Source: Clostridia bacterium (lineage in GTDB: Bacteria > Bacillota > Clostridia > Christensenellales > CAG-138). Taken from it: a stretch of DNA of 64,000 nucleotides. Location of the stretch: assembly GCA_017448545.1 (NCBI GenBank), contig JAFSLH010000007.1, positions 27,460-91,459 of the forward strand. The letters run 5' to 3'. The notes under the pieces were generated by a model. That model was given only the letters and a program-made list of their open reading frames with translations. It was not told the origin of the DNA and searched no databases. The position numbers were made by a program, and so were the translations under genes. Below, piece by piece: positions 2,609-61,129 of this stretch. Each line of letters opens with the position of its first letter. Positions within the stretch are counted from its first letter, which is position 1.

Positions 2609-2710
2609 TCAATTCACGACCGCGCAGCGGTCAATTCATGTCCGCAGGACAATTCACGGAGCGAAGCGAGAATTCACCGGGGCAGTTCAAAGCGCTTTTT
2701 GAACAGTCCC
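2609..2710. repeat. Intergenic mosaic repeat cluster R1 (modules C x4, inverted B, A variant)
   Basis: CAATTCACG at 2610, CAATTCATG at 2632, CAATTCACG at 2650, GAATTCACC at 2670. ATTCACGGAGCGAAGCGAGAATTCAC is the reverse complement of module B. Hairpin CAGTTCAAAGCGCTTTTTGAACAG. Confidence 0.85.
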
Positions 2711-2812
2711 GTGTCTTTTCTTGACTTTTCCGGCAAAACGGAATATTCTATCCAAAAGGAAATGATCGGCAGTTTGCCGAAAACGGAGGCGCGGCGTTTG
2801 CCGCAAAAATGT

Positions 2813-4684
2813 ATGCAGAATCAATCGTTTGACGTCGTTGTGATCGGCGCGGGACACGCGGGCGTGGAGGCCTCGCTTGCGGCGGCGCGGATGGGGCTTA
2901 ATACGCTCCTTTTGACGCTGAATCTCGACAGCATCGGCATGATGCCCTGCAACCCCGCCATCGGCGGCACAGGCAAGGGGCATCTGGTGCGCGAGCTCGA
3001 CGCGCTCGGCGGGGAGATGGGCCTTGCCGCCGACGATACGCTGATCCAGATGCGGATGCTGAACACGGGCAAGGGGCCCGCGGTGCACAGCCTGCGCGCG
3101 CAGATGGACAAGCGCCGGTACCACGAGCGCGTGAAAAGCGCGATCGAGCGCCAGCCGCTTTTGACCGTCGTGCAGGGCGAAGTCAACGAGATCGAAACGG
3201 AACACGGCTGCGTCAGCGCGGTCGTGACCGACGAAGGGTTCCGCTATCCGTGCCGCGCGGCGGTGCTGTGCGCCGGGGTGTACCTCAAGTCCCGCATCCT
3301 GATTGGCGAATGGGCGCGGCTTTCGGGCCCGAACGGGATGCTGCGCAGCGAAAACCTGTCCGACGCGCTGCGAAAGCTCGGGATTCCGCTGCAGCGGTTC
3401 AAGACCGGCACGCCGGCGCGCGTCAAGCGCAGCACGCTCGATTTCGACGAAATGGAGATCCAGCTCGGCGACGAACCGACGCCCGCGTTTTCATTCCTGC
3501 ACCCGAACGGCCTGCAGCTAACGCAGGACCCGTGCTGGCTGACGTATACGACCGCCGAAACGCACGAAATCATCCGGCAGAACCTGCACCGAAGCCCGAT
3601 GTACAGCGGCAGAATCCACGCGACCGGCACGCGCTACTGCCCGTCGATCGAGGACAAGGTCGTCAAGTTTGCCGACAAGGACCGGCACCAGCTGTTCATT
3701 GAGCCGGAAGGCCGTTCGACCGAAGAAATGTACGTGCAGGGGTTTTCGACGTCGCTGCCCGCGGACGTGCAGATCGACATGCTCCACTCGCTGCCGGGCC
3801 TTCGCCGCTGCGAAGTCATGCGGCTCGGCTATGCGATCGAATACGACTGCCTCGACCCGACTGCGCTCGACCTAAGGTTCATGGTCAAGTCCGTGCCCGG
3901 CCTGTTCACGGCGGGACAGGTCAACGGATCGAGCGGCTATGAGGAAGCCGCCGCGCAGGGGCTGTACGCCGGCATCAACGCGGCGCTGTACGTCAGGGGC
4001 GAAGAACCGTTCCTGCTCGGCCGCAGCGACGCGTACATCGGCGTGCTCGTCGACGATCTTGCGACGAAGGGGACGCCGGAACCGTACCGCATGATGACGA
4101 GCCGCTGCGAATACCGGCTGCTGCTCCGGCAGGACAACGCCGACCTGCGGCTGACCGAACGCGCTTACCGGCTCGGCCTCGTGTCCGACGCGCGCAAGGC
4201 CGAACTGGAACGGAAGAAAGAGGGCATCGCCCGCGCGATGCAGCGGCTCGGGACGCGCGTTCCGCCGACGGACGCGCTGCGCGTGTACCTCGAATCGCTC
4301 GGCGAGCCGATGGCGCAAAGCGGCGCGGTGCTGTTCGACCTTCTGAAACGCCCCCGCGTGCGGTATGCGGACCTGCTCGCGCTGTTCGACGCGCTGGAGC
4401 CGCTGGCCCCGAACGTGGAGGAACAGATCGAAGTGCTCGCACACTACGACGGCTATATCGAAAAGCAGCGCATCCAGGTCGAGCGCGAAAAGGCGCTCGA
4501 AAACACCGCGCTCCCGCCCGATCTCGATTATTCCGGGCTCGACGGGCTGCGCCTCGAAGCGCGGCAAAAGCTGACCGCGATCCACCCGGCCTCCGTCGGG
4601 CAGGCGTCGCGCATTTCCGGCGTTTCGCCCGCGGACGTGAGCGTGCTGCTGCTCTATGCAAAGAGAGGATTTTCCCATGCGTGA
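2813..4684 (+). CDS. mnmG: tRNA uridine 5-carboxymethylaminomethyl modification enzyme MnmG (GidA)
   Basis: ORF 2561..4684. The real start is probably ATG 2813 (MQNQSFDVVVIGAGHAGVEA, FAD GxGxxG). The full length looks like MnmG (GQVNGSSGYEEAAAQG, C-terminal ISGVSPADV). Confidence 0.95.
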   Translation: MQNQSFDVVVIGAGHAGVEASLAAARMGLNTLLLTLNLDSIGMMPCNPAIGGTGKGHLVRELDALGGEMGLAADDTLIQMRMLNTGKGPAVHSLRAQMDKRRYHERVKSAIERQPLLTVVQGEVNEIETEHGCVSAVVTDEGFRYPCRAAVLCAGVYLKSRILIGEWARLSGPNGMLRSENLSDALRKLGIPLQRFKTGTPARVKRSTLDFDEMEIQLGDEPTPAFSFLHPNGLQLTQDPCWLTYTTAETHEIIRQNLHRSPMYSGRIHATGTRYCPSIEDKVVKFADKDRHQLFIEPEGRSTEEMYVQGFSTSLPADVQIDMLHSLPGLRRCEVMRLGYAIEYDCLDPTALDLRFMVKSVPGLFTAGQVNGSSGYEEAAAQGLYAGINAALYVRGEEPFLLGRSDAYIGVLVDDLATKGTPEPYRMMTSRCEYRLLLRQDNADLRLTERAYRLGLVSDARKAELERKKEGIARAMQRLGTRVPPTDALRVYLESLGEPMAQSGAVLFDLLKRPRVRYADLLALFDALEPLAPNVEEQIEVLAHYDGYIEKQRIQVEREKALENTALPPDLDYSGLDGLRLEARQKLTAIHPASVGQASRISGVSPADVSVLLLYAKRGFSHA

Positions 4685-5357
4685 CCTGCTGCAACAAACC
4701 ATCCCGTCGCTGACGGCGGAACAGTGCGACAGATTTGTCGCATACTACGACCTGCTGATCGACTGGAACACGCGCATGAACCTGACGGCGATCACCGCGC
4801 CGGAGGACGTTGTGAAAAAGCATTTTGCCGATTCGCTCGCCGCTCTGCCGTTTCTGCCGGAAGGCGCGCGCGTCGCCGACGTCGGCACGGGCGCGGGCTT
4901 TCCGGGCGTGCCGCTTCTGATCGTGCGGCCCGACCTACGGCTGACACTGGTCGATTCGCTGCAGAAACGGATCGGTTTTTTGGAAACCGTGCTGCAAACG
5001 CTCGGTCTTTCGGCCGTTTGCGTCCATGCGCGCGCCGAAGATTTCGGGCAGAACCCGGCGTATCGCGCGTCGTTCGACGTCGCCGTGTCCCGCGCAGTGG
5101 CGAGTCTGCCGGTACTGCTCGAACTGACCGTACCGCTTCTGAAGGTCGGCGGCAAGAGCATTTGCTATAAAGGCGACGCTTCGGAGGAGCTCGCGGCATC
5201 GCGCGGCGCGCTGCACAAGCTCGGCGCAAGCGCGAAAACCGTTTCGGTGCCCGCCGACTACGGCGCGCGTTCGCTCGTTATCTGCACCAAAAACGCACCA
5301 ACGTCGAAGCAGTACCCGCGCAAAGCCGGCACGCCGGCCAAATCGCCGCTGCGCTGA
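4677..5357 (+). CDS. rsmG: 16S rRNA (guanine527-N7)-methyltransferase RsmG (GidB)
   Basis: ORF 4656..5357. Start at ATG 4677 with an AGAGAGGA RBS, overlapping the mnmG stop. SAM motif DVGTGAGFPG. Classical mnmG-rsmG pairing. Confidence 0.9.
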   Translation: MRDLLQQTIPSLTAEQCDRFVAYYDLLIDWNTRMNLTAITAPEDVVKKHFADSLAALPFLPEGARVADVGTGAGFPGVPLLIVRPDLRLTLVDSLQKRIGFLETVLQTLGLSAVCVHARAEDFGQNPAYRASFDVAVSRAVASLPVLLELTVPLLKVGGKSICYKGDASEELAASRGALHKLGASAKTVSVPADYGARSLVICTKNAPTSKQYPRKAGTPAKSPLR

Positions 5358-5363
5358 AAACCG

Positions 5364-5379
5364 TTTTTCACGTGAAAGA
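5364..5379. other. parS-like palindrome
   Basis: TTTTTCACGTGAAAGA matches the Firmicute parS consensus TGTTNCACGTGAAACA at 14/16 positions. The inner 12 bp TTTCACGTGAAA form a perfect palindrome. Located just after rsmG. Confidence 0.4.
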
Positions 5380-5416: not shown

Positions 5417-7666
5417 TCAGTTCACGGAATCGTTTTGCAGAAACGCGATGATGTCGCTGAGCCCGCGGATGTTCGTGTGCAGCTTTTCCTTTTCGAGCGA
5501 GACGGTGGAAAGCTCGCGCCCGAGGAACACGAGCGACGTGGAATGCCCGCCGTCGAGGTTGTACGCCGTGCGGCAGCCATACTGAACGCAGGCGTCCGCG
5601 ATCATGCTGTACGTCATCTGCAGCGACCGGTCGCGCATCGAGATCGCGACGATGTAATGGTACGGATCGGAATAGCCGAACGCGACGCGCATCGTATAGG
5701 TGTCGGTCGCCGGCGCAACGTTGACGCCGTCCCGCACCAGCACCGGTCCGAACGAGAAGCTGTCCTTTACGCCGAGCGCGAGCAGGGCGTCGGCCGTCGT
5801 TTCGCCCTTTTCATAGATCTGCAGCGTTCCGTCCGGCAGAATCGCATACGTCGTCGTTTCGGCGCGATCGTAATAGACCGTGCCGTTCCGCATCATAACG
5901 GCCTTGCGGTTCGAGGTGTAGCCGATATAGTCGCCGGTAAACGCGATCACCGCGTGATGCTGCCGCGCCTGGACTTCCGGCAGTTCGGTAGACATACGGA
6001 TTACGTTGCCGGATGCCTCCGGGTTCGTCACGTACCCCGTCGGCAGCGCGTTCGCCCGCGCAAAGAGGTCCGTCCGAAACGGCGTGCGATAGCCGTAATC
6101 GTCGACGCAGATCGTCGCCGCGCCGGTTTCGTCGAGATACAGCCACGGGCCGAGCGACGCTTCCTGTCCCTCGATGTAGGCCGTCGCCGTTTCGCCGACC
6201 GTGCCGTCCGGCGCCGGTTCGCACTGCCAGTCCGACGCAAAGACCGGTTCCGCCGGAAGCTGATCCGGCAGCCGGCCCGTGCCGATCAGACGCCCGTCGA
6301 GCCGTACGGCGACCGTATGGTACGCGCCCGCCGCAATCGCCGCCACGTCCGTCCAGTTCGCAACGTCACACTGACCCGCGCCGTTGTCGCCGACCGCAAC
6401 GACCGTCCCGTCGGCTTTCAGCCCGACCGTGGTGCACGCGCCGCACGCGACCGCGACAAGATCGGTCCAGTCCGAAACGTCGCACTGACCGTAGGTATTC
6501 TCCCCGGCGGCGACCGCCGTCCCGTCGGCTTTCAGGCCGACCGTGTGCCAAAGCCCCGCCGCAACGGCGGTCACGTCCGTCCAATCCGATACGTCGCACT
6601 GGCCGTGATCATTGTTCCCGATCGCCAGCACGGTTCCGTCGGCTTTCGCACCGACCGAGTGCCACGCGCCCGCCGCGACGCTTCGGATTTCCGTCCAGTC
6701 CGACGTGTCGATCCGGCCGAACGCCCGGCCGCCGACGCCGGTCACGGCGCCGTCCGCGTGCAGAAACAGCGCGTGGGAAAGCCCCGCCGCCGCATCAATG
6801 ACGTCGGTCAGCGCCGACACGGTTTCTTCCGCGCCGAAGCTCTCTCCGGTCAGAAGCACCCGCCCGTCCTGTAGGTACAGAACGCTCGTCAGCCCGGACA
6901 CGACGCGATCCGCCTTTTGCGGCGCGTCGGGATAGCGCGCGTCGCCGAAGATGTTCGGCTGTTCGCCCGCGACGGCCGTATGCCACGCCCCCGCCGCAAC
7001 CGATCCTTCCGCGCGCACCAGTACGTCCGCGCGATAGGCAACCCAATATTCCGCCTGCAGCTGCTCGATCTCCGCCGCAGCCGCGTTGGCTTCCGCCGTG
7101 CCGAGCGCGCGCAGGGCCGCAATCGCCTCGTTGAAATTCGTTCCGTCGAACACCGCGCTTGCCGCGGCATAGTCGAGCCGCGCGCGAATCTTTGCCGCGC
7201 GTGCCGCCGCGTCGCTGTACGTTCCGAGCGCAAGGAACGCTTCGAGCGCCGCTTCGTCGTCTCCGGCGAGCTCCAGCGCGTCCGCCGCGCTGTACGCATG
7301 CGCTCTTTCCCGTTCCTGCAGCGTTTCCCGCGTCGCGTCGTCCTGCGGCGTCCAGTTGTCGAGCAGCTCCGACGCGTAGTCCGTTTCGTCCTTGTCCACC
7401 GCGCGCCGGATCTCCTCCCGCGCGCGTTCGAGCCGCCGCTGCTCGAGCGCTTCGACCTTCCGGTCAAACAGCGGCTGCCCGCGCAGCTTGTCCAGCGCGC
7501 CGTCGATCGCCGCGAGCGCATCGGCATAGTCCGCGGTTTCGCTCGTCGCCATCGCGCTGCGATAGACCTGCTCCTTCGGCACATACCAGAGCGTCACCGC
7601 CCCGGCCGAAAGCAGCAGCACGCCGAGCACCGCAGCCATTGCTATCAGCAAAAGTCTTTGTTTCAA
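5417..7666 (-). CDS. Membrane-anchored protein: coiled/TPR-like region, RCC1-like repeats, C-terminal phosphodiester glycosidase (NAGPA/DUF2233-like) domain
   Basis: 749-aa ORF with TTG start at 7666 and GGAGGA 7 nt upstream. N-terminal TM helix. Repeats of the type DGTV.A.G.N..GQCDVS.WTD..AVAAG.WHTVGLKA. C-terminal ..TAYNLDGGHSTSLVF.. resembles phosphodiester glycosidase family proteins. Confidence 0.75.
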   Translation of the reverse strand: MKQRLLLIAMAAVLGVLLLSAGAVTLWYVPKEQVYRSAMATSETADYADALAAIDGALDKLRGQPLFDRKVEALEQRRLERAREEIRRAVDKDETDYASELLDNWTPQDDATRETLQERERAHAYSAADALELAGDDEAALEAFLALGTYSDAAARAAKIRARLDYAAASAVFDGTNFNEAIAALRALGTAEANAAAAEIEQLQAEYWVAYRADVLVRAEGSVAAGAWHTAVAGEQPNIFGDARYPDAPQKADRVVSGLTSVLYLQDGRVLLTGESFGAEETVSALTDVIDAAAGLSHALFLHADGAVTGVGGRAFGRIDTSDWTEIRSVAAGAWHSVGAKADGTVLAIGNNDHGQCDVSDWTDVTAVAAGLWHTVGLKADGTAVAAGENTYGQCDVSDWTDLVAVACGACTTVGLKADGTVVAVGDNGAGQCDVANWTDVAAIAAGAYHTVAVRLDGRLIGTGRLPDQLPAEPVFASDWQCEPAPDGTVGETATAYIEGQEASLGPWLYLDETGAATICVDDYGYRTPFRTDLFARANALPTGYVTNPEASGNVIRMSTELPEVQARQHHAVIAFTGDYIGYTSNRKAVMMRNGTVYYDRAETTTYAILPDGTLQIYEKGETTADALLALGVKDSFSFGPVLVRDGVNVAPATDTYTMRVAFGYSDPYHYIVAISMRDRSLQMTYSMIADACVQYGCRTAYNLDGGHSTSLVFLGRELSTVSLEKEKLHTNIRGLSDIIAFLQNDSVN
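6351..6806. repeat. In-frame tandem coding repeat, period 114 bp (38 aa), encoding the RCC1-like blades
   Basis: The motif GTCCAGT(T/C)CG / GTCCAATCCG recurs at 6351, 6465, 6579 and 6693, exactly 114 bp apart. The copies are diverged, not identical. Confidence 0.8.
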
Positions 7667-20535: not shown

Positions 20536-20612
20536 ATGCAATACCTCTTTTCTGAAATAGTACGATGATTTGTTCGGCTGCCTTGGGCAAAAGCCCAACT
20601 TCAACCAAATAC

Positions 20613-20641
20613 AATATACCATCCTTTGCCGAAGCTGTCAA
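20613..20641 (-). promoter_or_regulatory. Sigma-A-type promoter of pckA
   Basis: Minus strand TTGACA (20636-20641), 17 bp, TATATT (20613-20618). Confidence 0.55.
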
Positions 20642-20882
20642 TCCGCCGCGCCCGCTTTCCCGCGTCCTTCACAAATTTTTCACGGGAGAAAAGGGGCTGT
20701 TGATAAGGCAGGCAGAATTCGCGTTTTCGTCCCGAAGGCTGTACTGACGCTACGCCGAGGGTGAAAACGCGGATAATTTGCGGCATATAATCAGAGAAAA
20801 GGCGGATTTTTCCGCCTTTTCCACATACAAGATAAAACAATTCCAATTTGCCGCAAATGGTCTGGTGCCTTTTGCGACAGCC

Positions 20883-21066
20883 CCCCTTGTGAATTCTCGC
20901 TTCGCTCCGTGAATGCGCTCCCGGTGCGAGAAGAAGCAGAATCTTTGTCCCCTTACACAGGGGAGGCATACGGCGAAGCCAATTCACGACCGCGCAGCGG
21001 TCAATTCACGGCGCAGCCAATTCACGCTCTTGCGCAATTGACGACCGCGCCAGCGGTCAATTCACG
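20883..21066. repeat. Intergenic mosaic repeat cluster R2 (modules B, F, D, C x5)
   Basis: CCCTTGTGAATTCTCGCTTCGCTCCGTGAAT. TGCGAGAAGAAGCAGAATCTTT. GTCCCCTTACACAGGGGAGG. CAATTCACG at 20980, 21002, 21018 and 21058, with CAATTGACG at 21035. Confidence 0.9.
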
Positions 21067-21070
21067 CAAC

Positions 21071-21096
21071 AAAAAAGAGGGGGTCTTGCCCCCTCC
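21071..21096 (-). terminator. Intrinsic terminator of the rplU-prp-rpmA operon
   Basis: Minus strand GGAGGGGG-CAAGA-CCCCCTC followed by TTTTTT. Confidence 0.7.
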
Positions 21097-21107
21097 GTTT
21101 GTCTGTG

Positions 21108-21389
21108 TTATTCCGCCGCATAGACGCTGACGGTCTTTTTGCCCGCATGACGGGTTTCGAACTTGACGACGCCGTCGATCTTGGCAAACAGCGTGTCGTC
21201 CTTGCCGATTCCGACGTTCGTGCCGGGATGGAAATGCGTTCCGCGCTGACGAACAAGAATGTTGCCTGCCAGAACCGCCTGACCGTCCGCACGCTTCGGC
21301 CCGAGACGCTTGCTCTCGCTGTCTCTGCCGTTACGGGAAGAACCGACGCCCTTCTTATGCGCAAACAGTTGCAGATTCATCTGAAACAT
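21108..21389 (-). CDS. rpmA: 50S ribosomal protein L27 (with Prp-cleavable N-terminal extension)
   Basis: [30 protein letters not shown]. The Firmicute-type propeptide ends in ..QLF/AHKKG. Confidence 0.93.
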
Positions 21390-25782: not shown

Positions 25783-25871
25783 TTTCGCCGCAGGCGAAAT
25801 CATAACTGTAAACTCTAAACTGTAAACTCTAAACCGGAAACAGAGCTGTTCAAAGCGCCTTTGAACAGCTC
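25783..25871. repeat. Intergenic mosaic repeat cluster R3 (modules H, G heptads x4, A)
   Basis: TTTCGCC-GCA-GGCGAAA. CTGTAAA CTCTAAA CTGTAAA CTCTAAA at 25806-25833. GAGCTGTTCAAAGCGCCTTTGAACAGCTC. Confidence 0.9.
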
Positions 25872-28439: not shown

Positions 28440-28640
28440 CGTTCCCGGCGTTGGTCTTGGTCTTTATCTTCGTCTTTATCTTTATCTTTGTCTTTGTCTT
28501 GCATCGAAAACGATATTTTTCATATCGATATCGATATTTTCGGATCGAAAACGATATGACGCGGAACGATAACGTTGCAAGTCGGAACGATAACGTTACG
28601 AAAACGTTGCGGGACGGGATTTATAAATTTGCACTTGCAT
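28440..28640. repeat. AT-rich island with microsatellite-like (TCTTTR)n run and nested direct/inverted repeats
   Basis: GGTCTTGGTCTTTATCTTCGTCTTTATCTTTATCTTTGTCTTTGTCTT. ATCGAAAACGATAT x2 (28502, 28544) flanking the palindrome ATATCGATATCGATAT. CGGAACGATAACGTT x2. Confidence 0.85.
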
Positions 28641-28650
28641 TTTTCCCTGC

Positions 28651-33087: not shown

Positions 33088-33158
33088 GTTGTTTATCACC
33101 TCGCGCATAGTATGACCGGCTTTTGCGCCGATCATACGGCGGGCGGTTCGAAATCCAT

Positions 33159-33187: not shown

Positions 33188-33217
33188 GGAGAAAACGATC
33201 CGAAGGAGCAAACAACG

Positions 33218-34714: not shown

Positions 34715-34721
34715 CGCCATG

Positions 34722-35133: not shown

Positions 35134-35160
35134 CCGCTGTTTGCCCGCCGCAGGCGAGTG
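35084..35160. repeat. Repeat modules between the two 87-bp copies (hairpin ATAAAACGCG..CGCGTTTTAT, module I, H-like CGCCGCAGGCGA)
   Basis: 10-bp inverted arms at 35084-35093 and 35121-35130. TGACCGCTGTTTGCC at 35131-35145. Confidence 0.8.
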
Positions 35161-35190
35161 CCGCCGCCGAGAACTCCGAGAGAACGAACT

Positions 35191-35277
35191 AACATGAAGC
35201 AAATCAATCGCGAAAAACTGCATACCCTTTGGACGCTGTTCCTCACTTCGATGCGGATCAGTGCGTTTACGTTCGGC
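35191..35277 (+). repeat. Direct repeat copy 2 (87 bp), the functional 5' end of the chromate-transporter gene
   Basis: Identical to 34993-35079. Confidence 0.95.
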
Positions 35278-35772
35278 GGCGGCTTCGTGATCGTGACGTT
35301 TATGAAGCGGCACTTTGTCGACCGGCTGCACTGGCTGAGCGAGGAGGAGATGCTGGACTATACCGCGCTCGCGCAGACCGCGCCGGGGCCGATCGCCGTG
35401 AACGCCGCGGTGCTGGTCGGGCGGCACGTTGCGGGGACCGCGGGCATGGCCGCCGCCGTGCTCGGCACGGTGATCCCGCCGATCGTGCTGCTTTCGGTGC
35501 TTTCGCTGTTTTACGCCGCGTTCGCGTCGAACCGGTACGTCGCGCTGTTTCTGAAGGGCATGCAGGCGGGCGTTGCGGCCGTGATCCTCGACGTCGTCTG
35601 CTCGCTCGGACAAAAGGTGCTGAAGGAGCGGTCGTGGGTTTCGATCGTCCTGATGGCGGCGGCCTTTGTCGCGTCGCTGGTGTTCCGCGTGAATGCCGTC
35701 TGGATCCTGCTCGGCGCGCTTGCGGTCGGCGTTGTGCTCGCCCTGCTGGAGCGAAAGGGGGCGAAGGCATGA
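35194..35772 (+). CDS. Chromate transporter (CHR) family protein, half-size subunit 1
   Basis: ORF 35158..35772 with ATG at 35194. SAFTFGGGFVIV and AQTAPGPIAVNAA motifs of ChrA-type proteins. Confidence 0.85.
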   Translation: MKQINREKLHTLWTLFLTSMRISAFTFGGGFVIVTFMKRHFVDRLHWLSEEEMLDYTALAQTAPGPIAVNAAVLVGRHVAGTAGMAAAVLGTVIPPIVLLSVLSLFYAAFASNRYVALFLKGMQAGVAAVILDVVCSLGQKVLKERSWVSIVLMAAAFVASLVFRVNAVWILLGALAVGVVLALLERKGAKA

Positions 35773-40394: not shown

Positions 40395-40439
40395 GTGAAT
40401 TCACAAGAGGCTGTTCAAACACGCATTGAACAGCCTCTT
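40395..40439. repeat. Intergenic repeat cluster R6 (B fragment plus A variant)
   Basis: GTGAATTCAC AAGAGG CTGTTCAAACACGCATTGAACAG CCTCTT. Confidence 0.75.
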
Positions 40440-40443
40440 TTGC
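40405..40443 (+). terminator. Hairpin terminator after the PmbA-like gene (built from repeat module A variant)
   Basis: AAGAGGCTGTTCAA-ACACGCA-TTGAACAGCCTCTT followed by TTGCTTT. Confidence 0.55.
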
Positions 40444-40457
40444 TTTGGTTTTCTGTT

Positions 40458-42293
40458 TCAGAATTCCCCGAACCGGCGCGTGCAGTAGTACAGCGCCTGC
40501 AGGGCGGGGCGGATTTCGGCGACAAGCGTGCCGCGATAGGTGGACGTGATCGTCGTCGAGTGGATGACGGTGTTGTTGCCGAGATAGACCATGATGTGGC
40601 CGACGTTCGTGTGCTTGCTGTTCATTAAGAACACCAGATCGCCGCGCTCCAAAAGCGCAAGCTCGTCCCTGCGCTCCTCGAGCCGCCCGAGCATGTTCAG
40701 CGGGATCGTCACGCCGTACGTTTCCCAATAGATCGAATCCGTGTTCGCAAGACCGGCGGCGGTCGTTTCGCCTTCGTCCATGTCCATATACAGCGGATGG
40801 CTCTCGTACAGCCGGAACCCGAGCGAGCCGAGCGACCAGCACACGATGCCGGAGCAGTCATAGGCGCGATCGCCGAGCCGCTGGCCGTTGCTGTACGGCG
40901 TGCCGAGCCGGTCGTAGATGTTCGAAATCATCGTTTCGATCAGCAGGGCGCGTAAATCGGTCACTTCCGTCTGTACGCGGCGCGCCGAATCGAAGTAGGC
41001 GCCGTACTCCGAAGCGGAAGCGAACACGCCCTCGATGAGCGTCACCGTGCCGTCCACGACGGTCATCATGCTGTCGCCGCCGAGATAGACGCCGCAGGTC
41101 GTGACGTAGCCGGAATATTTGCCGCGGAACACGACGCGCGCATTCGCCTCGATCGGCTTGTCCTTTGCGCCGTACGCCGTGAAGAACAGCAGGTCGCCCG
41201 GTTCGAGCGACGCCGCATCGTCGAGATACAGCCACTGCGTGCGCTCGCCGTCGTACGTCACGTTCCAGCCGCTCGTATTGAACAGCTTGAACCCGAGCGA
41301 ATTGTAGACCGCGTCGGTATACAGCCGCGGGTAATACGTCTTGTTCGTCAGCGGCTTCTGATACAGTTCGTAGTAATACGGATCGAACCGGAACCCGAGC
41401 GCCCGCAGCGTGTCGTACACAAACTCTGCGTCGGACGCGGCTTCTTCGCCCTCGGCTTCCCGCGCCCGCGTGACGAATGCGTCCGCACTGTACAGCAGCT
41501 CCGGCGTTTCCTCGTTCGCACGGAACGCGGCCCCGAGCGCTTCCGCATTGCTTTCGGAAACGACCGACGCCTGCACATACCCGATCACGCCGTCGTCGGT
41601 GAGAATCAGCGCAAAGCTGTCGTTCTGCCCGGCGAGCCCGAGCACGCGCACGGCGGTATAGCTGCGCCGCGCAACCGGCGTCGCATAGCCGAGATGCGGA
41701 AGATTCCAGATGATGGTGTTCTGCCGGCCGAGGAACCCGAGCCAGCTGTGTTTGCCGCCGAGCGTCCGGCTTTCGGTCACGTCCGCCGCGCGCACATAGC
41801 CCTCTTCGCCGGTTTTCAGATACAGCACCGGCAAAAACGCCTCGTCCGCCGCGTCAGGATCGAGCAGCAGAAAGCTGCGCTGATCCGGGTACGTCGACGA
41901 CGACTTGATCACCGTCGCGTCCGCATCGGCGTCCGGCGCTTTATAGAACCGGATCGAAGTGCTGCGCATTTCGTACACGGTCACCGTTTCCGCGTTCATC
42001 TGCAGCGTTTCTTCGGCGGGATGCGGCGTCGGAACGGGGGTCGGGGACGGCGTGGGCGTGGGCGACGGCGTGGGGGACGGCGTCGGCGTCGGGGACGGCG
42101 TCGGCGACGGGGTCGGCGTCGGAACGGGCGTCAGCTCCACAACGATCGGCTGCGGCGTTTTTGCGATCGGTTCGACCGATTGCACCGGCGCTTCCGTTTG
42201 CGGCGCGACCGTTTCTGCGGTTTGCGCCGTGCCGACGCAGCCGACCAGCAGCAGCGCCGAAAGCGCGCCGAGCGCAAGAACACAACGCTTCAT
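40458..42293 (-). CDS. Secreted lipoprotein with Pro/Thr/Ser linker, SH3-like region and NlpC/P60 (C40) cell-wall hydrolase domain(s)
   Basis: Track ORF 40458..42836, trimmed to ATG 42293 (MKRCVLALGALSALLLVGC lipobox). C-terminal DCSGIVCWSL ... GHIMVYLG ... H pattern of C40 peptidases. Confidence 0.8.
   Translation of the reverse strand: MKRCVLALGALSALLLVGCVGTAQTAETVAPQTEAPVQSVEPIAKTPQPIVVELTPVPTPTPSPTPSPTPTPSPTPSPTPTPSPTPVPTPHPAEETLQMNAETVTVYEMRSTSIRFYKAPDADADATVIKSSSTYPDQRSFLLLDPDAADEAFLPVLYLKTGEEGYVRAADVTESRTLGGKHSWLGFLGRQNTIIWNLPHLGYATPVARRSYTAVRVLGLAGQNDSFALILTDDGVIGYVQASVVSESNAEALGAAFRANEETPELLYSADAFVTRAREAEGEEAASDAEFVYDTLRALGFRFDPYYYELYQKPLTNKTYYPRLYTDAVYNSLGFKLFNTSGWNVTYDGERTQWLYLDDAASLEPGDLLFFTAYGAKDKPIEANARVVFRGKYSGYVTTCGVYLGGDSMMTVVDGTVTLIEGVFASASEYGAYFDSARRVQTEVTDLRALLIETMISNIYDRLGTPYSNGQRLGDRAYDCSGIVCWSLGSLGFRLYESHPLYMDMDEGETTAAGLANTDSIYWETYGVTIPLNMLGRLEERRDELALLERGDLVFLMNSKHTNVGHIMVYLGNNTVIHSTTITSTYRGTLVAEIRPALQALYYCTRRFGEF
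42021..42131. repeat. Low-complexity coding repeat encoding the (T/S)P linker of the NlpC/P60 lipoprotein
   Basis: Plus strand shows reiterated GGGGACGGCGT(G/C)GGCGT units that translate on the minus strand to TPSPTPSPTPTPSPTP. Confidence 0.8.
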
Positions 42294-47944: not shown

Positions 47945-48099
47945 TCTGTTCCTCCGAATCCGGGAAATGCGCCGGCTGCCCGGACAATTCCCGATTTTAA
48001 CGCTTTATTTTACCACAGAATCCCGTTTTCGCACCGCCCCCGGCCACAGATTTACCGTTTATTCATAAATTGGGCGGCAAGCTGACGAAAAGAGGGACC

Positions 48100-48268
48100 G
48101 CTCAAAATGCTTTGAACAGTCCCTTGTGAATTCTCGCTTCGCTCCGTGAATTGTCCTAAGGAAGCCTTTCCGGACGGAACACATTTATCACGACAACGCA
48201 GTTGTCAATTCACGCGTTTACGCAATTCACGGCGCAGCCAATTCACGCGGCAACGCCGCAATTCACCG
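48100..48268. repeat. Intergenic mosaic repeat cluster R7 (degenerate A, B, C x4)
   Basis: GCTCAAAATGCTTTGAACAG. TCCCTTGTGAATTCTCGCTTCGCTCCGTGAATT. CAATTCACG at 48206, 48223 and 48239. CAATTCACC at 48259. Confidence 0.9.
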
Positions 48269-49254: not shown

Positions 49255-50397
49255 TTACTCCGAAAACAGCGCCTTGACGGCCGCTTCGTTCAGCCCGGAA
49301 CCGATCACGCACAGCCGACCGATCACGCTCGCCGCGCCGTGCCGCAGCTCGATTTCGCCCGGGACGTGGTCAAAATGCAGCCACGTGCCGTCCGTCGCCG
49401 GAACGACGCCCTTGGCCCGCAGCACCGCGCCGTAGGTCGCTTCGTCGTCGAGCTTCGACAGCTTCTCTTTCAGCTCGTCTTCCGTAAAGCGGTGCATCGT
49501 CTCCATGCCCCAGCTCTGGAAAATCTCGTCCGCATGGTGGTGTCCGTCGTGGTGATGGTGGTGATGGTGCTCGTGCTCGTCTTCGTCGTCGTCATCGTCA
49601 TGATGATGGTGATGGTGCTCGTGCTCCTCCTCATCCTCATCGTGATGGTGGTGGTGATGCTCATGCTCGTCTTCGTCGTCATCGTCATCATCGTCGTCGT
49701 GATGGTGGCCGCAGGCGCAGACGCCGTTTTCATCGTAATGGTGATGATGCGCGTGCTCCTTTGCGTGCGCTTCGGCCAGCGCCCGAAGGTCGCTGTCGAG
49801 CGAGCTGCGGTGCTCCATCGCGTCCAGTATGTCCTGCCCGGACAGGCTGTCCCACGGCGCGGCGATGATCACCGCGTCCGGGTTGTGCTCGCGCACGAGT
49901 TCGAGCGCCGCGTCCAGCTTGTCCTGCCCAATATCCTGCGTCCGGCTCAGAATGATGCAGCCGGCCGATTCGATCTGGTTGTTGAAGAACTCGCCGAAGT
50001 TCTTGTGGTAAACGCGCGCCTTCTTCGCGTCCACGACGGTCACGCAGCCGCCGAGCTGCACGTCGTCGTTCAGTACGGAGCCGATCGCGGCCTTGACGTC
50101 GCTGAGCTTGCCGACGCCGGACGGCTCGATCAGGATATGATCCGGATGGAATTCATCCAGCACCTTCTCGAGCGCCTTTGCGAAGTCGCCGACGAGCGAG
50201 CAGCAGATGCAGCCCGAATTCATCTCGGTGATCCGGATGCCGGCGTCCTGCAGAAACGCGCCGTCGATGCCGATCTCTCCGAATTCGTTCTCGATCAGCA
50301 CGATCTTCTGCCCCGCATACGCTTCGGCAATCAGTTTTTTGATCAGAGTCGTTTTGCCGGCTCCCAAAAATCCGCTGAAAATATCAATTTTCGTCAT
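49255..50397 (-). CDS. COG0523-family metallochaperone GTPase (CobW/ZigA/YeiR-like) with a very long His/Asp/Glu-rich insert
   Basis: ORF 49255..50442, trimmed to ATG 50397 (MTKIDIFSGFLGAGKTTLIKKL). GCICCS metal-binding motif, CobW_C-like C-terminus and a ~75-residue H/D/E tract. Confidence 0.85.
   Translation of the reverse strand: MTKIDIFSGFLGAGKTTLIKKLIAEAYAGQKIVLIENEFGEIGIDGAFLQDAGIRITEMNSGCICCSLVGDFAKALEKVLDEFHPDHILIEPSGVGKLSDVKAAIGSVLNDDVQLGGCVTVVDAKKARVYHKNFGEFFNNQIESAGCIILSRTQDIGQDKLDAALELVREHNPDAVIIAAPWDSLSGQDILDAMEHRSSLDSDLRALAEAHAKEHAHHHHYDENGVCACGHHHDDDDDDDDEDEHEHHHHHHDEDEEEHEHHHHHHDDDDDEDEHEHHHHHHHDGHHHADEIFQSWGMETMHRFTEDELKEKLSKLDDEATYGAVLRAKGVVPATDGTWLHFDHVPGEIELRHGAASVIGRLCVIGSGLNEAAVKALFSE
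49531..49770. repeat. Imperfect tandem coding repeat (CAT/CAC/GAC/GAT/GAA-rich on the coding strand) encoding the His/Asp/Glu tract
   Basis: The peptide reads HHHDDDDDDDDEDEHEHHHHHHDEDEEEHEHHHHHHDDDDDEDEHEHHHHHHHDGHHH. The unit D(n)EDEHEHHHHHH recurs three times. Confidence 0.85.
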
Positions 50398-52313: not shown

Positions 52314-52342
52314 GTTTACAGTTCAGAGGTTACAGTTTACAG
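52314..52342. repeat. Heptad module G immediately after the pepF-like stop codon (R8)
   Basis: GTTTACAGTTCAGAGGTTACAGTTTACAG. Confidence 0.8.
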
Positions 52343-52345
52343 ATC

Positions 52346-55674: not shown

Positions 55675-57000
55675 ATGGAAGAACGCAAACAGTTTTGGGA
55701 AACCGCTTGCGGTTATATTGCCGCGCAGATTCCCGAGATCAGTTTTCATAAATGGATCGAACCCCTTTCCCCGGTCACCGTGGAACACGGCATCTTGGTG
55801 CTGGAAGCGCCGGACGACGTGATCAAATCGACGGTGCAGAAATTCTATCTGGAAAACGTACGGCGCGGCGTACAGAAAGCCGATCCGACCATCCTCGACC
55901 TGATGCTGATTCTGTCTTCGCAGCGCGAGGATTTTCTGCGCGTGACCGAAGAACCGAAGGAGCCGCAGCCGAATCTGAGTCTGAACCCGAAGTATACGTT
56001 CGATACGTTTGTCGTCGGCAAATCCAATAATTTCGCGCACGCGGCGGCGCTCGCCGTGGCGGACGAGCCGGGCCGTTCCTATAACCCGCTGTTCATATAC
56101 GGCGGCGTCGGTCTCGGCAAAACGCACCTGATGCACGCGATCGGGCACGCAATGCTCGACAGGAACAAAAACGCGCGCATCGTGTACGTCACGAGCGAAA
56201 TGTTTACGAACGACCTGATTGAAGCGCTGCGCGCCGGCAAAAACATCGAGTTCCGGCAAAAATACCGCAACATCGATCTTTTGATGATCGACGACGTGCA
56301 GTTCATCGCCGGAAAACAGTCCGTGCAGGAGGAGTTTTTCAATACGTTCAACGCGCTGCACAACCTCGGCAAACAGATCGTCATTTCGTCCGACCGGCCG
56401 CCGAAGGAAATCAAATCGCTCGAAGAACGGCTTTCCTCCCGGTTTGAATGCGGCCTCGTCGCGGATATTCAGCCGCCGGATCGGGAAACGCGGATTGCGA
56501 TTTTGAAAAACCGCGCGCTCTTAGAGCACGTCGACGTCAAGGACGACGTGATTCTGTACATTGCCGAGCACGTTCAGAACAACGTCCGGCAGCTCGAAGG
56601 CAGTCTGACGCGCGTGATCGCGTATTCGCGCCTGAAGGGAATCCCGATCACGATGTCGCTTGCTTTGGAAGCGCTGAAGGATCTGCTGCCCGATGAGAAC
56701 GCGCCGGCCGTAACGCCGGACCGCATCAAGGAAACGGTCGCTTCCTATTACGCGGTGTCGGTTGAAAATCTGACGTCGCAGCGGCGGGACAAGGAAATCG
56801 TGCTGCCGCGGCAGGTCGCGATGTATCTTTGCCACAAACTGCTGAATCTTCCGTACAAGAAGATCGCGCAGCTGTTCGACCGCGGCGACCATACGACGGC
56901 GATTTCGGCCTGTAAAAAAATCGCTTCGACGGCGGAAACGGATTACGCGTTCCGCGAAGAACTGAAGAATATCGAAAAGCGGCTTGAAAACCGGTCGTAA
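55675..57000 (+). CDS. dnaA: Chromosomal replication initiator protein DnaA
   Basis: 441 aa. AAA+ Walker A GGVGLGKTHLMHAIG. Domain IV DHTTAISACKKI. Confidence 0.97.
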   Translation: MEERKQFWETACGYIAAQIPEISFHKWIEPLSPVTVEHGILVLEAPDDVIKSTVQKFYLENVRRGVQKADPTILDLMLILSSQREDFLRVTEEPKEPQPNLSLNPKYTFDTFVVGKSNNFAHAAALAVADEPGRSYNPLFIYGGVGLGKTHLMHAIGHAMLDRNKNARIVYVTSEMFTNDLIEALRAGKNIEFRQKYRNIDLLMIDDVQFIAGKQSVQEEFFNTFNALHNLGKQIVISSDRPPKEIKSLEERLSSRFECGLVADIQPPDRETRIAILKNRALLEHVDVKDDVILYIAEHVQNNVRQLEGSLTRVIAYSRLKGIPITMSLALEALKDLLPDENAPAVTPDRIKETVASYYAVSVENLTSQRRDKEIVLPRQVAMYLCHKLLNLPYKKIAQLFDRGDHTTAISACKKIASTAETDYAFREELKNIEKRLENRS

Positions 57001-57259
57001 ACCGAAATCGGAACGCGAATTCTTCCACAATTTGTGGATTTGAAAAGTGGAAAAAATGCGGATACCGTGGACAAGACGGAAACCGTGGACAAGGGAAGCC
57101 GTTATCCACACGGAAAAAGCCGGGTTTTCCACGCGAAAAAGGTTGACGCCGTCTCGGAAAACGGGACTTATCAACACTTTTCACACGCCCTACTGTTACT
57201 ACTACTTGAAACAATAACATATAACACCGTTTTTGCGGTGGATACGGAAAGGAATGTGT
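57001..57259. other. oriC (dnaA-dnaN intergenic origin): DnaA-box cluster, GC cluster, DnaA-trio-like array and AT-rich DUE
   Basis: Perfect TTATCCACA at 57102-57110. 8/9 box TTATCAACA at 57168-57176. 7/9 boxes at 57021-57029, 57033-57041(rc), 57046-57054(rc), 57066-57074(rc), 57084-57092(rc), 57125-57133 and 57237-57245(rc). CTA CTG TTA CTA CTA CTT at 57190-57207. AT-rich tract 57205-57226. Confidence 0.8.
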
Positions 57260-58354
57260 ATGAAATTTTATCTCGATGCAGGCGATCTGATCAACGGCGT
57301 ACTCTCCGTCATCAAGGCGCTGCCGATCCGTTCGGCAATGCCGGTTCTGGACGGTATCTTAATCGAAGCGAAAGAAAACAAGCTCCATCTCGTATGCTCC
57401 GATCTGATGTTCCAGAAGGAATGTTTGATTCCCGCGACGGTGGAGGAGGAAGGTTCCTGCGTCGTCAAAGGCAAGTTCTTTGCCGAAGTACTGCGTAAGC
57501 TGCCGATGGGCCCGGTTCGCTTTGAAACCGAGGGCCAGGTGCTCGGCTTAAAGAGCGGCCGCATCCGCCAGAGAATGCAGTGCATCGAATTCGACGAATT
57601 CCCGATCATGAAGGTCAAAGGCGAGCAGTACGGGCTGACGCTGCCGAAGGACGCGTTCAAATCCATGATCGATCATACCGTCTTTGCCGTTTCGCAGGAC
57701 GATTCCCGTCCGGTGCTGACCGGCACGCTGCTCGAAGCTTCGGAAGACGCGCTTTCGCTCGTCGCGACCGACTCGTTCCAGTTCGCGCTGACCTGCTACC
57801 GGTTCGATCATCCGATCGCGCCGCGCAGCACGATCGTGCAGGGCAAAGTGCTTGCCGAAATCGGCAAGATGGCCGAGGAAGCCGAAGAAACCGTGACGAT
57901 GCAGCTGACCAATACGCACATCACAGTCGAGATCGGTTCGTCGCGTCTGACCGCCCGGCTTCTGGACGGCAATTATATCGACTATAAGCGGATTATTCCG
58001 AAGGAATGCAAGACGCGCGTTCTGGTCAACGTCGCCGTGCTGTCCGAGATGATCGACCGCGCGCAGCTCGTTTCGCGCGAGGGCAACAACAGCATCCGTT
58101 TCACGTTCTCGAACGAGACGATGCAGGTCATCGCCGAAAGCTATCTCGGAAAAGTCGAGGACGAAGCAGAAGTGCAGATCGTCGGCGATCCGCTGGAGAT
58201 TGCGTTCAATCCGAAGTACTTCATCAACGTGCTGCGCAGTATTTCGGACGAAACCGTGTACCTCGAATTCAACAGCGCGATCAGCCCGTGCGTCATCCGC
58301 CCCGTGCAGGGAGACGCGTACCTGTACCTGATCGTCCCGATGCGGATTTATTGA
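57260..58354 (+). CDS. dnaN: DNA polymerase III subunit beta (sliding clamp)
   Basis: ORF 57233..58354, with ATG at 57260 (MKFYLDAGDLINGVLSV). Three-domain clamp pattern. Follows dnaA. Confidence 0.93.
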   Translation: MKFYLDAGDLINGVLSVIKALPIRSAMPVLDGILIEAKENKLHLVCSDLMFQKECLIPATVEEEGSCVVKGKFFAEVLRKLPMGPVRFETEGQVLGLKSGRIRQRMQCIEFDEFPIMKVKGEQYGLTLPKDAFKSMIDHTVFAVSQDDSRPVLTGTLLEASEDALSLVATDSFQFALTCYRFDHPIAPRSTIVQGKVLAEIGKMAEEAEETVTMQLTNTHITVEIGSSRLTARLLDGNYIDYKRIIPKECKTRVLVNVAVLSEMIDRAQLVSREGNNSIRFTFSNETMQVIAESYLGKVEDEAEVQIVGDPLEIAFNPKYFINVLRSISDETVYLEFNSAISPCVIRPVQGDAYLYLIVPMRIY

Positions 58355-60046: not shown

Positions 60047-60074
60047 AAATTGCATTCATAATAGGAGGTTTTCC

Positions 60075-61064
60075 ATGGAACAAGGCAACAAGAGACCCGA
60101 AACGATGGAGCGTATCACGAACGAAACGCTGGCGAAAGCGTTTATTGACGAGCAGGTACAGGCCCTGCGCGAGCAGATCGGCGATCAGAAGGTGCTTTTG
60201 GCGCTGTCGGGCGGCGTCGATTCTTCGGTTTGCGCCGCGCTGATTTCCAAGGCGGTCGGCAAGCAGCTGACCTGCGTGCACGTCAATCACGGTCTTCTGC
60301 GCAAGGGCGAGCCGGAGCAGGTTTGCGAAGTGTTCGGCAAGCAGTTTGACGTCAATCTGATTTATGTGGACGCGATCGACCGGTTCCTGGACGCGCTGGC
60401 AGGCGTTTCCGAACCCGAGCAGAAGCGCAAGATCATCGGCAAAATCTTCATCGACGTGTTTGCGGAGGAAGCGCGCAAGCTCGAAGGCGTCAAGTTCCTC
60501 GGACAGGGTACGATCTATCCCGACATTCTGGAATCCCACGGCGTCAAAGCGCATCATAACGTCGGCGGTCTGCCGGAAGATATGCAGAACTTTGAACTGG
60601 TCGAGCCGGTCAAGCTGCTCTACAAAGACGAAGTGCGCGTCGTCGGCAAAGCGCTCGGTCTGCCGGACAACATGGTCTATCGGCAGCCGTTCCCGGGCCC
60701 GGGCCTCGGCGTTCGCTGCGTCGGCGCAATCACGCGCGACCGGCTCGAAGCGCTGCGTGAAGCGGACGCGATCGTTCGCGAAGAGATCGGCAAGCTCCCC
60801 GAAACCCCGTGGCAGTATTTCTGCGCGATCCCGGATATCGTTTCGACCGGCATCCGCTACGTCGACGGCAAGGGCGTCCGCTATATGGGCTGGGCCGTCG
60901 TCATCCGTGCGGTCAACACGGTCGACGCCGTGACCGCAACCGTGCCGGAAATCCCGTTCTCCGTGCTGTGCAAGATGCGCGACCAGATCGTCAAGATCCC
61001 CGGCGTCAACCGCGTCCTCTGGGACATCAGCGAAAAACCCGTTGCCACGATCGAGTGGGAATGA
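60075..61064 (+). CDS. guaA: GMP synthase, ATP-pyrophosphatase plus dimerisation domains only (no glutamine amidotransferase domain)
   Basis: 329 aa. PP-loop ALSGGVDSSV. C-terminal ..PVATIEWE is the canonical GuaA end. The N-terminus begins directly at the ATP-PPase domain. Confidence 0.88.
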   Translation: MEQGNKRPETMERITNETLAKAFIDEQVQALREQIGDQKVLLALSGGVDSSVCAALISKAVGKQLTCVHVNHGLLRKGEPEQVCEVFGKQFDVNLIYVDAIDRFLDALAGVSEPEQKRKIIGKIFIDVFAEEARKLEGVKFLGQGTIYPDILESHGVKAHHNVGGLPEDMQNFELVEPVKLLYKDEVRVVGKALGLPDNMVYRQPFPGPGLGVRCVGAITRDRLEALREADAIVREEIGKLPETPWQYFCAIPDIVSTGIRYVDGKGVRYMGWAVVIRAVNTVDAVTATVPEIPFSVLCKMRDQIVKIPGVNRVLWDISEKPVATIEWE

Positions 61065-61102
61065 AAAGCCGCAGGCTTTTCAACTATGATTGCCTTCGGC
61101 AA

Positions 61103-61129
61103 GTTTAGAGTTTACAGGTTACAGTTTGC
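61103..61129. repeat. Heptad module G after guaA (R9), preceded by H-like hairpin AAAAGCC-GCA-GGCTTTT (61065-61081)
   Basis: GTTTAGAGTTTACAGGTTACAGTTTGC. Confidence 0.8.

Follow-up and report, generated by a model that had tools for sequence, protein, structure and literature searches.

Nine intergenic gaps in a 64,000-nucleotide (nt) stretch of DNA from a Clostridia bacterium (assembly GCA_017448545.1, contig JAFSLH010000007.1, forward-strand positions 27,460 to 91,459; hereafter the window) hold clusters of short repeat modules. A preliminary description had named these modules A to I and treated them as one combinatorial family. In our analysis they fall into three unrelated families with different distributions, namely family 1 (modules D, E, F and I), family 2 (A, B and C) and family 3 (G and H). 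The mosaic character, which had been likened to miniature inverted-repeat transposable elements (MITEs) and repetitive extragenic palindromic (REP) sequences, was borne out, but it is the work of at least these three families and not of one. The clusters are probably mosaics of partly truncated and mutually nested copies without an open reading frame (ORF), and two of the families would be miniature derivatives of small gene cassettes. Both families are the conserved flanks of protein-coding cassettes present elsewhere, one encoding a DUF559 protein and the other a PF05635 protein, and these cassettes are very common in gut and rumen Clostridia.

All nine clusters were present between housekeeping genes where they had been reported. 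The sequence CAATTCACG occurs 10 times in the window versus 0.81 times expected, a count reached in none of 100 shuffles. The D hairpin was found five times with at most three mismatches (0 expected), and the chance expectation for the A palindrome is likewise none. Long inverted or direct matches link the clusters, among them 28843-28927 with 34828-34912 (85 nt, 84%) and 2641-2682 with 48121-48162 (42 nt, 90%). The repeats are indeed intergenic, rich in hairpins and present in both orientations: every cluster lies outside ORFs with coding-type G+C content at third codon positions, the sole apparent overlap being with an over-extended mnmG ORF, and none of the nine contains a credible ORF. Altogether the elements comprise about 1.18 kb, or roughly 13% of the approximately 8.7 kb of non-coding DNA in the window. 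A position just after a stop codon, as initially described, applies to most clusters but not to all, since the gap at 2609-2710 (ABC transporter/mnmG) is divergent; of the remaining gaps five are tandem and three, in agreement with the preliminary description, convergent. Module A is exact only at 34725, and the copies at 2685, 25845, 40410 and 48098 keep the arms with a different centre or with indels. The bare 8-mer of module F is non-specific (13 matches, mostly within genes), and related F nested hairpins are confined to 20914-20947, 28886-28927 and 34829-34867. Module H is exact only twice and non-specific once mismatches are allowed, and two of the 12 matches to the G heptad (36414 and 56910) lie inside genes. 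Module B consists of two reverse-complement C units joined by a GCGAAGC mini-hairpin.

An arm of family 1 consists of the hairpin CCTCCCC-TGTGTAA-GGGGAGG (module D), a hypervariable covarying hairpin and GGAGGGGTTGT, and two inverted arms form palindromes of 110-190 nt. Modules F and I, formerly listed separately, are merely the enlarged variable hairpin of one arm variant. The exact D 21-mer was found in at least 120 stretches of GTDB species representatives from many Clostridia lineages, including Oscillospiraceae, Faecousia, Acutalibacteraceae, Gallimonas, Lawsonibacter, Gemmiger and Limivicinus, and in 21 IMG/VR phage stretches. These loci are not close relatives of the window (gene identity at most 70%). 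A search among phage records for annotated carriers of an arm gave only eight metagenomic phages, all unannotated. In the foreign loci a conserved palindrome has D as its left end; it reads AAAG, CCTCCCC-TGTGTAA-GGGGAGG, TG, variable hairpin and GGAGGGGTTG-T on the left and, after 0-60 nt, A-CAATCCCYCA, hairpin and AGC-YCCCTT-TACACA-AGGGRGCC-TTT on the right. The full palindrome is present in 70 of 154 distinct family 1 copies, and up to six D hairpins occur in one 8-kb foreign locus. Across the approximately 1 Mb of D-bearing foreign loci there were no matches to A, B, C, G or H; single isolated matches for the C 9-mer, module I and a 10-nt half of A did not exceed chance level.

Covariation, which had been proposed as a check on the repeats, is evident in the variable hairpin of family 1. 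Its 121 distinct sequences form a mean stem of 6.0 bp versus 3.0 bp after shuffling, and among 103 loops 67 are 3 nt long and 40 are GNA triloops. In an alignment of 28 arms (A1), six of eight pairs change on both sides, with 57 double-changed cells compared to 17.9 in shuffles (0 of 500 reached this number) and a covariation score of 0.341 compared to at most 0.051 with slid partners. A covariance model built from foreign arms alone detected six arms in the window and one just outside.

We clustered all ORFs located between arms in the D-bearing loci and obtained one recurrent family, a PF04480/DUF559 protein of 118-123 amino acids belonging to the Vsr-like PD-(D/E)xK endonucleases, with eight copies in seven D-selected loci (Pfam E-values 1e-30 to 7e-32). 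In L055, L087, L097, L120 and L131 the left arm ends in GGAGGGRTTGT with the ATG immediately next, and the GGAGGGG of this arm is a putative Shine-Dalgarno sequence of the DUF559 gene. The right arm itself supplies the last codons (CAA TCC CTC AGT CAG, encoding QSLSQ) and the stop codon, after which its terminator-like terminal hairpin and TTT follow. This SLSQ tail is absent in L030, L070 and L131, where the right arm is not adjacent, which places the gene in the centre of the palindrome in the manner of a REP-associated tyrosine transposase (RAYT) gene between REPs. In alignment A2 the short family 1 elements correspond to the cassette without some 345 nt of its ORF. As an unbiased control, DUF559 homologues were chosen by protein similarity alone; two of them, P0287 and P0337, from two species and many samples, carry the same arms. 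DUF559 has no fewer than 8000 close homologues, most of which are located on contigs of 0.5-2.5 kb. Among solved structures 3hrl is the nearest, and DUF559 has been grouped with Vsr and the homing endonuclease I-Bth0305I (PMC3424549). PADLOC gave no specific defence-system assignment, and in the literature searched DUF559 appears only in classifications.

In the window family 1 is represented by two doublets, one singlet and two fragments. These elements, the arms matched by the covariance model and the match outside the window are as follows:
20914-20972, minus strand: family 1 fragment with the D hairpin at 20946-20966 (2 mismatches) and part of the F hairpin.
20948-20964, minus strand: covariance-model match to this fragment.
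28663-28715, minus strand: element of the 'right-arm' type, composed of ACAATCCTCCC, the hairpin GATCGC-TTC-GCGATC, CCCTCCT-TTACACA-AGGAGGG and TTTT; covariance-model match with 40.4 bits and E 9e-10.
28713-28847, no strand assigned: doublet with a 39-nt spacer between its two arms.
28713-28752, plus strand: first arm of this doublet, without variable hairpin; covariance-model match with 43.6 bits.
28792-28847, minus strand: second arm, with GATCGGC-GCA-GCCGAGCC; covariance-model match with 71.5 bits.
28843-28931, minus strand: truncated long-arm interior (modules I and F), 84% complementary to 34828-34912.
34804-34991, no strand assigned: doublet with a dG of -54.7 kcal/mol.
34804-34907, plus strand: long arm of this doublet; covariance-model match with a 63-nt insertion in the hairpin (modules F and I).
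34938-34991, minus strand: second arm, with GGTGAC-GCA-GTCACC; covariance-model match.
35132-35145, plus strand: isolated copy of module I, within an insert of 107 nt between two 91-nt copies of the chrA start.
L188 3346-3449, plus strand: covariance-model match outside the window.

The doublets fold as very stable long hairpins, with z -10.5 for 34804-34991 and -8.9 for the cluster of 28713-28847. The long arm at 34804-34907 has a 98% identical copy outside the window, at 3349-3452 of L188. The duplication around the isolated module I copy (34989-35079 and 35187-35277, 99%) covers the ribosome-binding site and the first codons of the chromate transporter gene, and the insert also contains a 10-bp stem (ATAAAACGCG...CGCGTTTTAT); the arrangement at 34989-35277 is identical in two other assemblies. 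Each of two IMG/VR phage contigs (L026 and L027) has three to four elements of family 1 located between structural genes for portal, capsid and terminase, with a common 41-nt centre (ACGGTTCGGTCTTATGGCGTGGCTGCGACGGGCGAGAAGCA) and a different variable hairpin in each.

Family 2 elements run from a terminal palindrome through inverted arrays, in which an AATTCAY heptamer is combined with a variable mini-hairpin, to a Shine-Dalgarno sequence. The B 26-mer was found in seven metagenome contigs representing six distinct loci from unrelated organisms (53-61% G+C), and none of these contigs has homology to window genes. Thus, both D and B extend well beyond the window, and a further composite cluster lies 6 kb past its end. 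The B-bearing loci share one architecture: after a terminal palindrome come ATGAATTG units, every one of them with a mini-hairpin behind it, then a centre starting with GCAATTCAATTCACGGAGCGAAGCGA and an inverted CAATTCAY array; L181 contains three such clusters with up to 20 heptamer units. The 91 heptamer spacers have periods of 17 or 20-22 nt and loops of GCA, GAA or GTCA, and the 51 distinct ones form a mean stem of 3.98 bp versus 2.28 bp after shuffling. Compensatory variants are found within the window itself, for instance GACCGC-GCA-GCGGTC at 2619 and GACAAC-GCA-GTTGTC at 48190.

In L181 and L187 a gene for a PF05635/TIGR02436 four-helix-bundle protein is situated between two arrays. Three more PF05635 homologues, fetched by protein only and stemming from organisms with 42-56% G+C, have a complete element ending in CAATTCATTCTAAAGGAGAAACTAT-ATG directly upstream. 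In L211, L213 and L214 a second family 2 copy after the PF05635 gene supplies the next ribosome-binding site. A 53%-identical homologue in the IMG/VR contig L215 shows the same architecture with the heptamer GTGAAAT/ATTTCAC instead of GTGAATT. Therewith, each of the six cassette lineages examined (L181, L187, L202, L207, L211 and L215) has its PF05635 gene directly downstream of a family 2 element, and the heptamer changes with the protein lineage. Close homologues number more than about 8000 and are mostly found on contigs of 0.5-2.5 kb. PF05635 is an Avd-like family of accessory proteins of diversity-generating retroelements (DGRs) (PMC10053308), and the literature searched deals with it mainly as an Avd relative in DGR work.

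The window carries one complete but gene-less copy of family 2 and five partial ones, which comprise the following features:
2588-2708, minus strand: half element with palindrome A (2685-2708) and four GTGAATT/CAATTCA heptamers separated by the mini-hairpins GACCGC-GCA-GCGGTC, GTCC-GCA-GGAC and GCGAAGC, in the divergent gap between ABC transporter and mnmG.
20884-20914, plus strand: centre (module B), GTGAATTC-TCGCTTCGCTCC-GTGAAT, abutting a family 1 fragment.
20980-21066, plus strand: right array (module C), in which mini-hairpins separate five CAATTCACG/CAATTGACG units; it lies in the stretch from the rpmA terminator to the region upstream of pckA and forms one partial copy with the centre (20884-21066).
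25845-25868, no strand assigned: solo A-type palindrome (partial family 2), just after the spoIVA stop codon.
34725-34778, plus strand: truncated element with the exact 22-bp A palindrome and a partial centre (B'), 11 nt past the stop codon of the M32 carboxypeptidase gene.
40395-40446, plus strand: remnant with GTGAATTCAC and an A-type palindrome extended to a 12-bp stem, then TTTTGCTTT; terminator-like, between convergent genes.
48094-48268, plus strand: complete ORF-less element with A-type palindrome, GTGAATT units, centre and four CAATTCAC units (z -3.2), ending in a vestigial Shine-Dalgarno sequence (CCGGAGAAAAAAAGG).

The constant position of family 2 before PF05635 start codons allows another reading, in which the element is not mobile at all and serves as operator or leader of the four-helix-bundle gene, that is, as an array of DNA or RNA binding sites for this protein, with the gene-less copies as decoy or regulatory arrays close to other genes. 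Such a role agrees with the Shine-Dalgarno sequence that always ends the element directly before the start codon, with the ribosome-binding site provided to the next gene by the second copy in L211, with the regular unit spacing, with the heptamer that co-varies with the protein lineage and with the DGR accessory function of the homologue Avd (PMC10053308). We nevertheless regard it as improbable. The window copies are variously truncated and none precedes a gene able to use the Shine-Dalgarno sequence, family 2 copies are absent from sister species, and the PF05635 gene is mostly located on very short contigs, as expected of dispersed repeats.

The abundance of hairpins in both families also recalls classical REPs and their hairpin-forming doublets (REPINs), which would be moved as single-stranded DNA by an HUH tyrosine transposase (RAYT or IS200/IS605 TnpA) encoded elsewhere, with DUF559 and PF05635 as passengers or later invaders. 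Most loops are triloops of the C-GNA-G type, known for the high stability of their DNA mini-hairpins, e.g. d(GCGAAGC). Singlets and inverted doublets both occur, and target-site duplications were not seen, as in IS200/IS605-type elements. Moreover, GTAG-headed G+C-rich hairpins such as GTAGGGGCGGCGTTGCGCCGCCC are located directly beside family 1 arms in some foreign loci (L017, L020, L023, L133 and L144) and look like classical REP sequences. However, the modules of the window have no conserved GTAG head, D being preceded by AAAG. No Y1 transposase turned up between or beside the arms, where DUF559 was the sole recurrent ORF in about 1 Mb of D-bearing loci, although no scan with the PF01797 hidden Markov model was made. 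In addition, the variation of the family 2 heptamer with the PF05635 lineage points to the PF05635 protein and not to an unrelated enzyme. Such a transposase is thus an unlikely source of the copies. An autonomous element with a transposase between distant arms was considered separately and rejected, as the ORFs there are ordinary (an asparaginase-like gene, uvrB, phage structural genes).

Family 3 has only two true copies (25793-25828 and 28947-28982), which are 94% identical over 36 nt and share a promoter-like TTTACA-16-TATGAT on the minus strand. Together with the two tracts of module G only, they are listed here:
25783-25834, minus strand: family 3 copy with the hairpin TTTCGCC-GCA-GGCGAAA and four heptads (GTTTASA, minus strand), directly upstream of gpr.
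28937-28985, minus strand: second true copy, beginning one base past the stop codon of the Na/Pi cotransporter gene.
52314-52343, plus strand: heptad tract, GTTTACA/GTTCAGA/GGTTACA, beginning 3 nt past a stop codon.
61103-61130, plus strand: heptad tract enclosed by a 10-bp inverted repeat, GATTGCCTTC/GAAGGCAATC.

In all four places GTTTASA lies on the strand of the upstream gene, after the stop codon of that gene. A viral scan for the heptads gave 61 matches, all of them plain (GTTTAGA)n or (GTTTACA)n tracts in unrelated phage contigs; therefore module G is no specific family and is largely a generic heptanucleotide tract. These IMG/VR tracts (L236-L296) are perfect, lie in intergenic DNA of 25-63% G+C and often follow a stop codon or precede a gene start. 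For H with its flank the viral scan yielded no matches, and 33 viral scan matches to the C arrays were discarded as chance or unrelated tandem repeats.

The mosaic arises where these families meet. In two places, 20884-21066 and L188 3210-3545, a family 1 long arm separates the centre of a family 2 element from its right array. A family 1 doublet adjoins a truncated family 2 element at 34725-34991, and the family 1 arm at 28843-28931 is cut inside its own D hairpin (28931/28937), where the family 3 copy starts. Elsewhere, L220 differs from L216, which represents the same locus, by a 46-nt insertion (L220 about 1430-1480) that interrupts a D-type hairpin loop upstream of a DUF559 gene. The insertion consists of the hairpin GCCCC-TGC-GGGGC followed by AATTCAC and therefore looks like a single family 2 unit within a family 1 arm. 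The supposed combinatorial grammar is best understood as the outcome of unrelated elements being repeatedly inserted, truncated and copied together at the few sites that tolerate insertions.

Comparison of orthologous gaps, also proposed in the preliminary description, revealed that the modules are absent from syntenic sites in relatives. The relatives have SpoIVA proteins of 84-88% identity, and in about 93 kb around their spoIVA genes, which are syntenic on the gpr side, we found no modules; likewise the covariance model detected no family 1 arm in sister-species DNA. The spoIVA-gpr spacer measures 51-57 nt with a plain terminator hairpin in the relatives versus 137 nt in the window, and the family 3 copy at 25783-25834 is missing there. 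Within the species, contigs from other samples end inside clusters. In a strain from another sample (L003 1-975) a different 198-amino-acid gene and a terminator replace the DUF2975/HTH_26 side, with the breakpoint exactly at the left end of a D arm (28716/28717). Absence from sister species, together with presence in distant Clostridia and phages, fits horizontally spreading, lineage-amplified elements and not inherited regulatory RNAs.

The latter would be host-selected, cis-acting transcript structures such as bidirectional terminators, 3'-end stabilisers or insulators, whose repetition reflects convergent or duplicated regulatory modules and not selfish spread. Most copies are indeed found just past stop codons and three between convergent genes, the doublets fold very stably, and the A palindrome occupies the position of the spoIVA terminator of the relatives. 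Family 1 is also co-oriented with its neighbouring genes in 29 versus 11 cases (crude gene calls), which hints at some selection at the transcript level. A hairpin with a T run is present at 40407-40446 (40407-40437 plus TTTTGCTTT), at 28691-28711 plus TTTT and at the right end of family 1 (GCTCCCTTTACACAAGGGAGCC-TTT), and for a few such copies, e.g. the first two, the proposed terminator or stabiliser role is plausible. On the other hand, intrinsic-terminator features are restricted to few copies; most D hairpins are without a U tract on the entering strand, and the C arrays and heptads do not show such features either. Plain terminators suffice at the same gaps in relatives without elements, truncated or nested copies are numerous, and one copy is situated in a divergent promoter gap. 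Furthermore, elements shared with distant Clostridia and phages and lacking in sister species are not expected of such structures, and none matches an Rfam family. Neither strand is consistently supported by the wobble and mismatch positions, as one conserved G-T speaks for the top strand and one A-C for the bottom strand, so they give no verdict on RNA versus DNA. Hence, we consider transcript structures a rather unlikely explanation for the clusters as a whole.

The interpretation as mosaics of gene-less derivatives suggests the following course. In each lineage a small number of copies with the gene would provide a protein acting in trans on the hairpin arms, as RAYT does on REPINs. Copies without the gene would thereupon spread through non-essential intergenic DNA, come to lie in or beside one another and subsequently decay, and any terminator or insulator effect would be secondary. 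More tentatively, gut and rumen Clostridia, along with their phages, may contain two REPIN-like systems that have not been described, in which a tiny non-transposase partner (DUF559 or PF05635) drives or licenses the spread of the gene-less copies. The DUF559 nuclease might nick extruded hairpins with the conserved G-T mispair, and the PF05635 four-helix bundle might bind the heptamer-hairpin arrays.

Several observations weigh against this interpretation. For a complete element, no insertion with an identifiable empty site was found, and the full elements inspected show neither a target-site duplication nor any direct repeat outside CAAAG...CTTTG. Neither DUF559 nor PF05635 proteins are known transposases, and to our knowledge no transposition activity has been attributed to them. 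No DUF559 or PF05635 gene is present in the window or the 9.7 kb beyond, and the documented copies amount to 10 clusters in 74 kb, with family 3 contributing just two true copies. Each exact DUF559 protein is found at one stable locus within its own species. Instead of driving the palindrome, the gene could have invaded an existing one secondarily; its SLSQ tail is read-through into the right arm. The co-orientation of family 1 with its neighbours belongs here as well.

The window has a G+C content of 60.8% and originates from an uncultured, spore-forming bacterium of ruminant gut metagenomes; the ENA contig XIEF21-1_SAMN15829888 scaffold_169 is 100% identical to part of it. It is ordinary chromosome, with mnmG, rpmA, pckA, spoIVA, gpr, spoIIP and a gyrB-type topoisomerase gene, and because dnaA and dnaN are located at 55675-58354 it spans the likely replication origin. 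No tRNA genes were found in the window. A ParB-binding parS site was rejected for palindrome A, as the canonical pattern gave one weak match elsewhere (5364-5379, 2 mismatches) and the core of A differs. Upstream of pckA a non-coding segment of 181 nt (20704-20884) stops exactly at the start of module B and has a 97% copy outside the window (L188 1-181), downstream of a YuaJ-type thiamine transporter gene. The segment holds a bidirectional terminator-like hairpin, AAAAGGCGGA-TTTT-TCCGCCTTTT, and has no Rfam match. In-frame tandem repeats unrelated to the intergenic modules occur inside coding regions at 49535-49755 (9-12 nt, His/Asp-rich), at 6310-6651 (three copies of a 114-nt unit) and in an NlpC/P60 gene at 42025-42132 (12-18 nt, Gly/Val/Asp-type).

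DUF559 and PF05635/TIGR02436 are among the commonest unexplained small bacterial proteins, each exceeding about 8000 close homologues within this clade, and the link to structured repeats gives each a testable role. If true, the proposed partnership would provide the first functional context for the 'DUF559' and 'four helix bundle protein' families and extend the idea of a domesticated or selfish gene with dispersed hairpins, known from REPIN/RAYT, beyond HUH transposases and Proteobacteria. The repeats also explain frequent contig breaks in metagenome assemblies of Clostridia, and such arrays risk being mistaken for regulatory RNAs or for miniature CRISPRs. In line with the earlier impression of an undescribed element, Rfam gave no match in the window, none near threshold in 28500-35400 or 20560-21120 and none on canonical elements in 18 foreign loci. 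The repeat sequences appear in no paper of the literature searched, the association of cassettes and repeats is described neither there nor in Rfam, and for MITEs or REPs in Oscillospiraceae and relatives only microbiome surveys were retrieved.

Among known systems, CRISPR arrays, with direct repeats of about 23-50 nt, unique spacers of comparable length and usually cas genes, do not match, as the unit here is 7-9 nt, the spacers are 8-16 nt and palindromic, and no Rfam CRISPR repeat reached threshold. Integron attC sites, which carry R'' (RYYYAAC) at the 5' end and R' (GTTRRRY) at the 3' end, differ in that the polarity is reversed here (GGGGTTGT...ACAATCCC) and the elements are single and scattered with no integrase nearby. 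Free-standing homing endonucleases of phages (seg/mob of T4) and I-Bth0305I resemble family 1 in that a gene of the Vsr nuclease clade stands alone in an intergenic gap, also in phages. However, homing targets the same locus in a naive genome and leaves gene-less copies at multiple loci and palindromic arms unexplained. The 23S rRNA intervening sequences of Leptospira and Coxiella encode a PF05635 protein, likewise on a short insert bounded by stem-forming inverted repeats, whereas the insert described here lies between protein-coding genes, has heptamer and hairpin flanks and is accompanied by dispersed gene-less copies.

Similar to bacterial interspersed mosaic elements (BIMEs) of enterobacteria, the clusters combine several kinds of intergenic repeat units in alternating orientation with variable linkers, but the units belong to families of unrelated origin and do not form a set of variants (Y, Z1, Z2) of one REP. 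MITEs such as Correia of Neisseria, ERIC/IRU, RUP and BOX are also ORF-less, 100-200 nt long, bounded by inverted repeats, intergenic, mutually nested and derived by internal deletion from longer gene-bearing elements; the inverted arms of 28713-28847 and 34804-34991 and the inverted heptamer arrays of 48094-48268 correspond to this pattern. In contrast to MITEs, the longer partner with the same ends encodes DUF559 or PF05635 and no recognised transposase, no target-site duplication was found, and the inverted ends are structured hairpins of about 55 nt (family 1) or arrays of 7-nt units (family 2). Thus, the elements behave like MITE/REPIN mosaics; the membership in REP/BIME suggested initially is contradicted by the missing GTAG head, which defines that group, and no RAYT was seen. 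With the REPIN/RAYT system of Proteobacteria they share extragenic palindromes that occur as singlets and as inverted doublets folding into long hairpins, numerous copies without a gene, a small gene that lies between two inverted arms of one repeat, no visible target-site duplication and a patchy distribution between lineages. They differ in the flanked gene, which encodes a Vsr-like DUF559 nuclease (family 1) or a PF05635 protein (family 2) in place of an HUH Y1 transposase, and in the leading motif, which is AAAG or nnAG for family 1 and AATTCAY for the units of family 2. Moreover, their arms carry a hypervariable second hairpin and double as ribosome-binding site and terminator of the gene, and their hosts are Clostridia and the phages of these bacteria.

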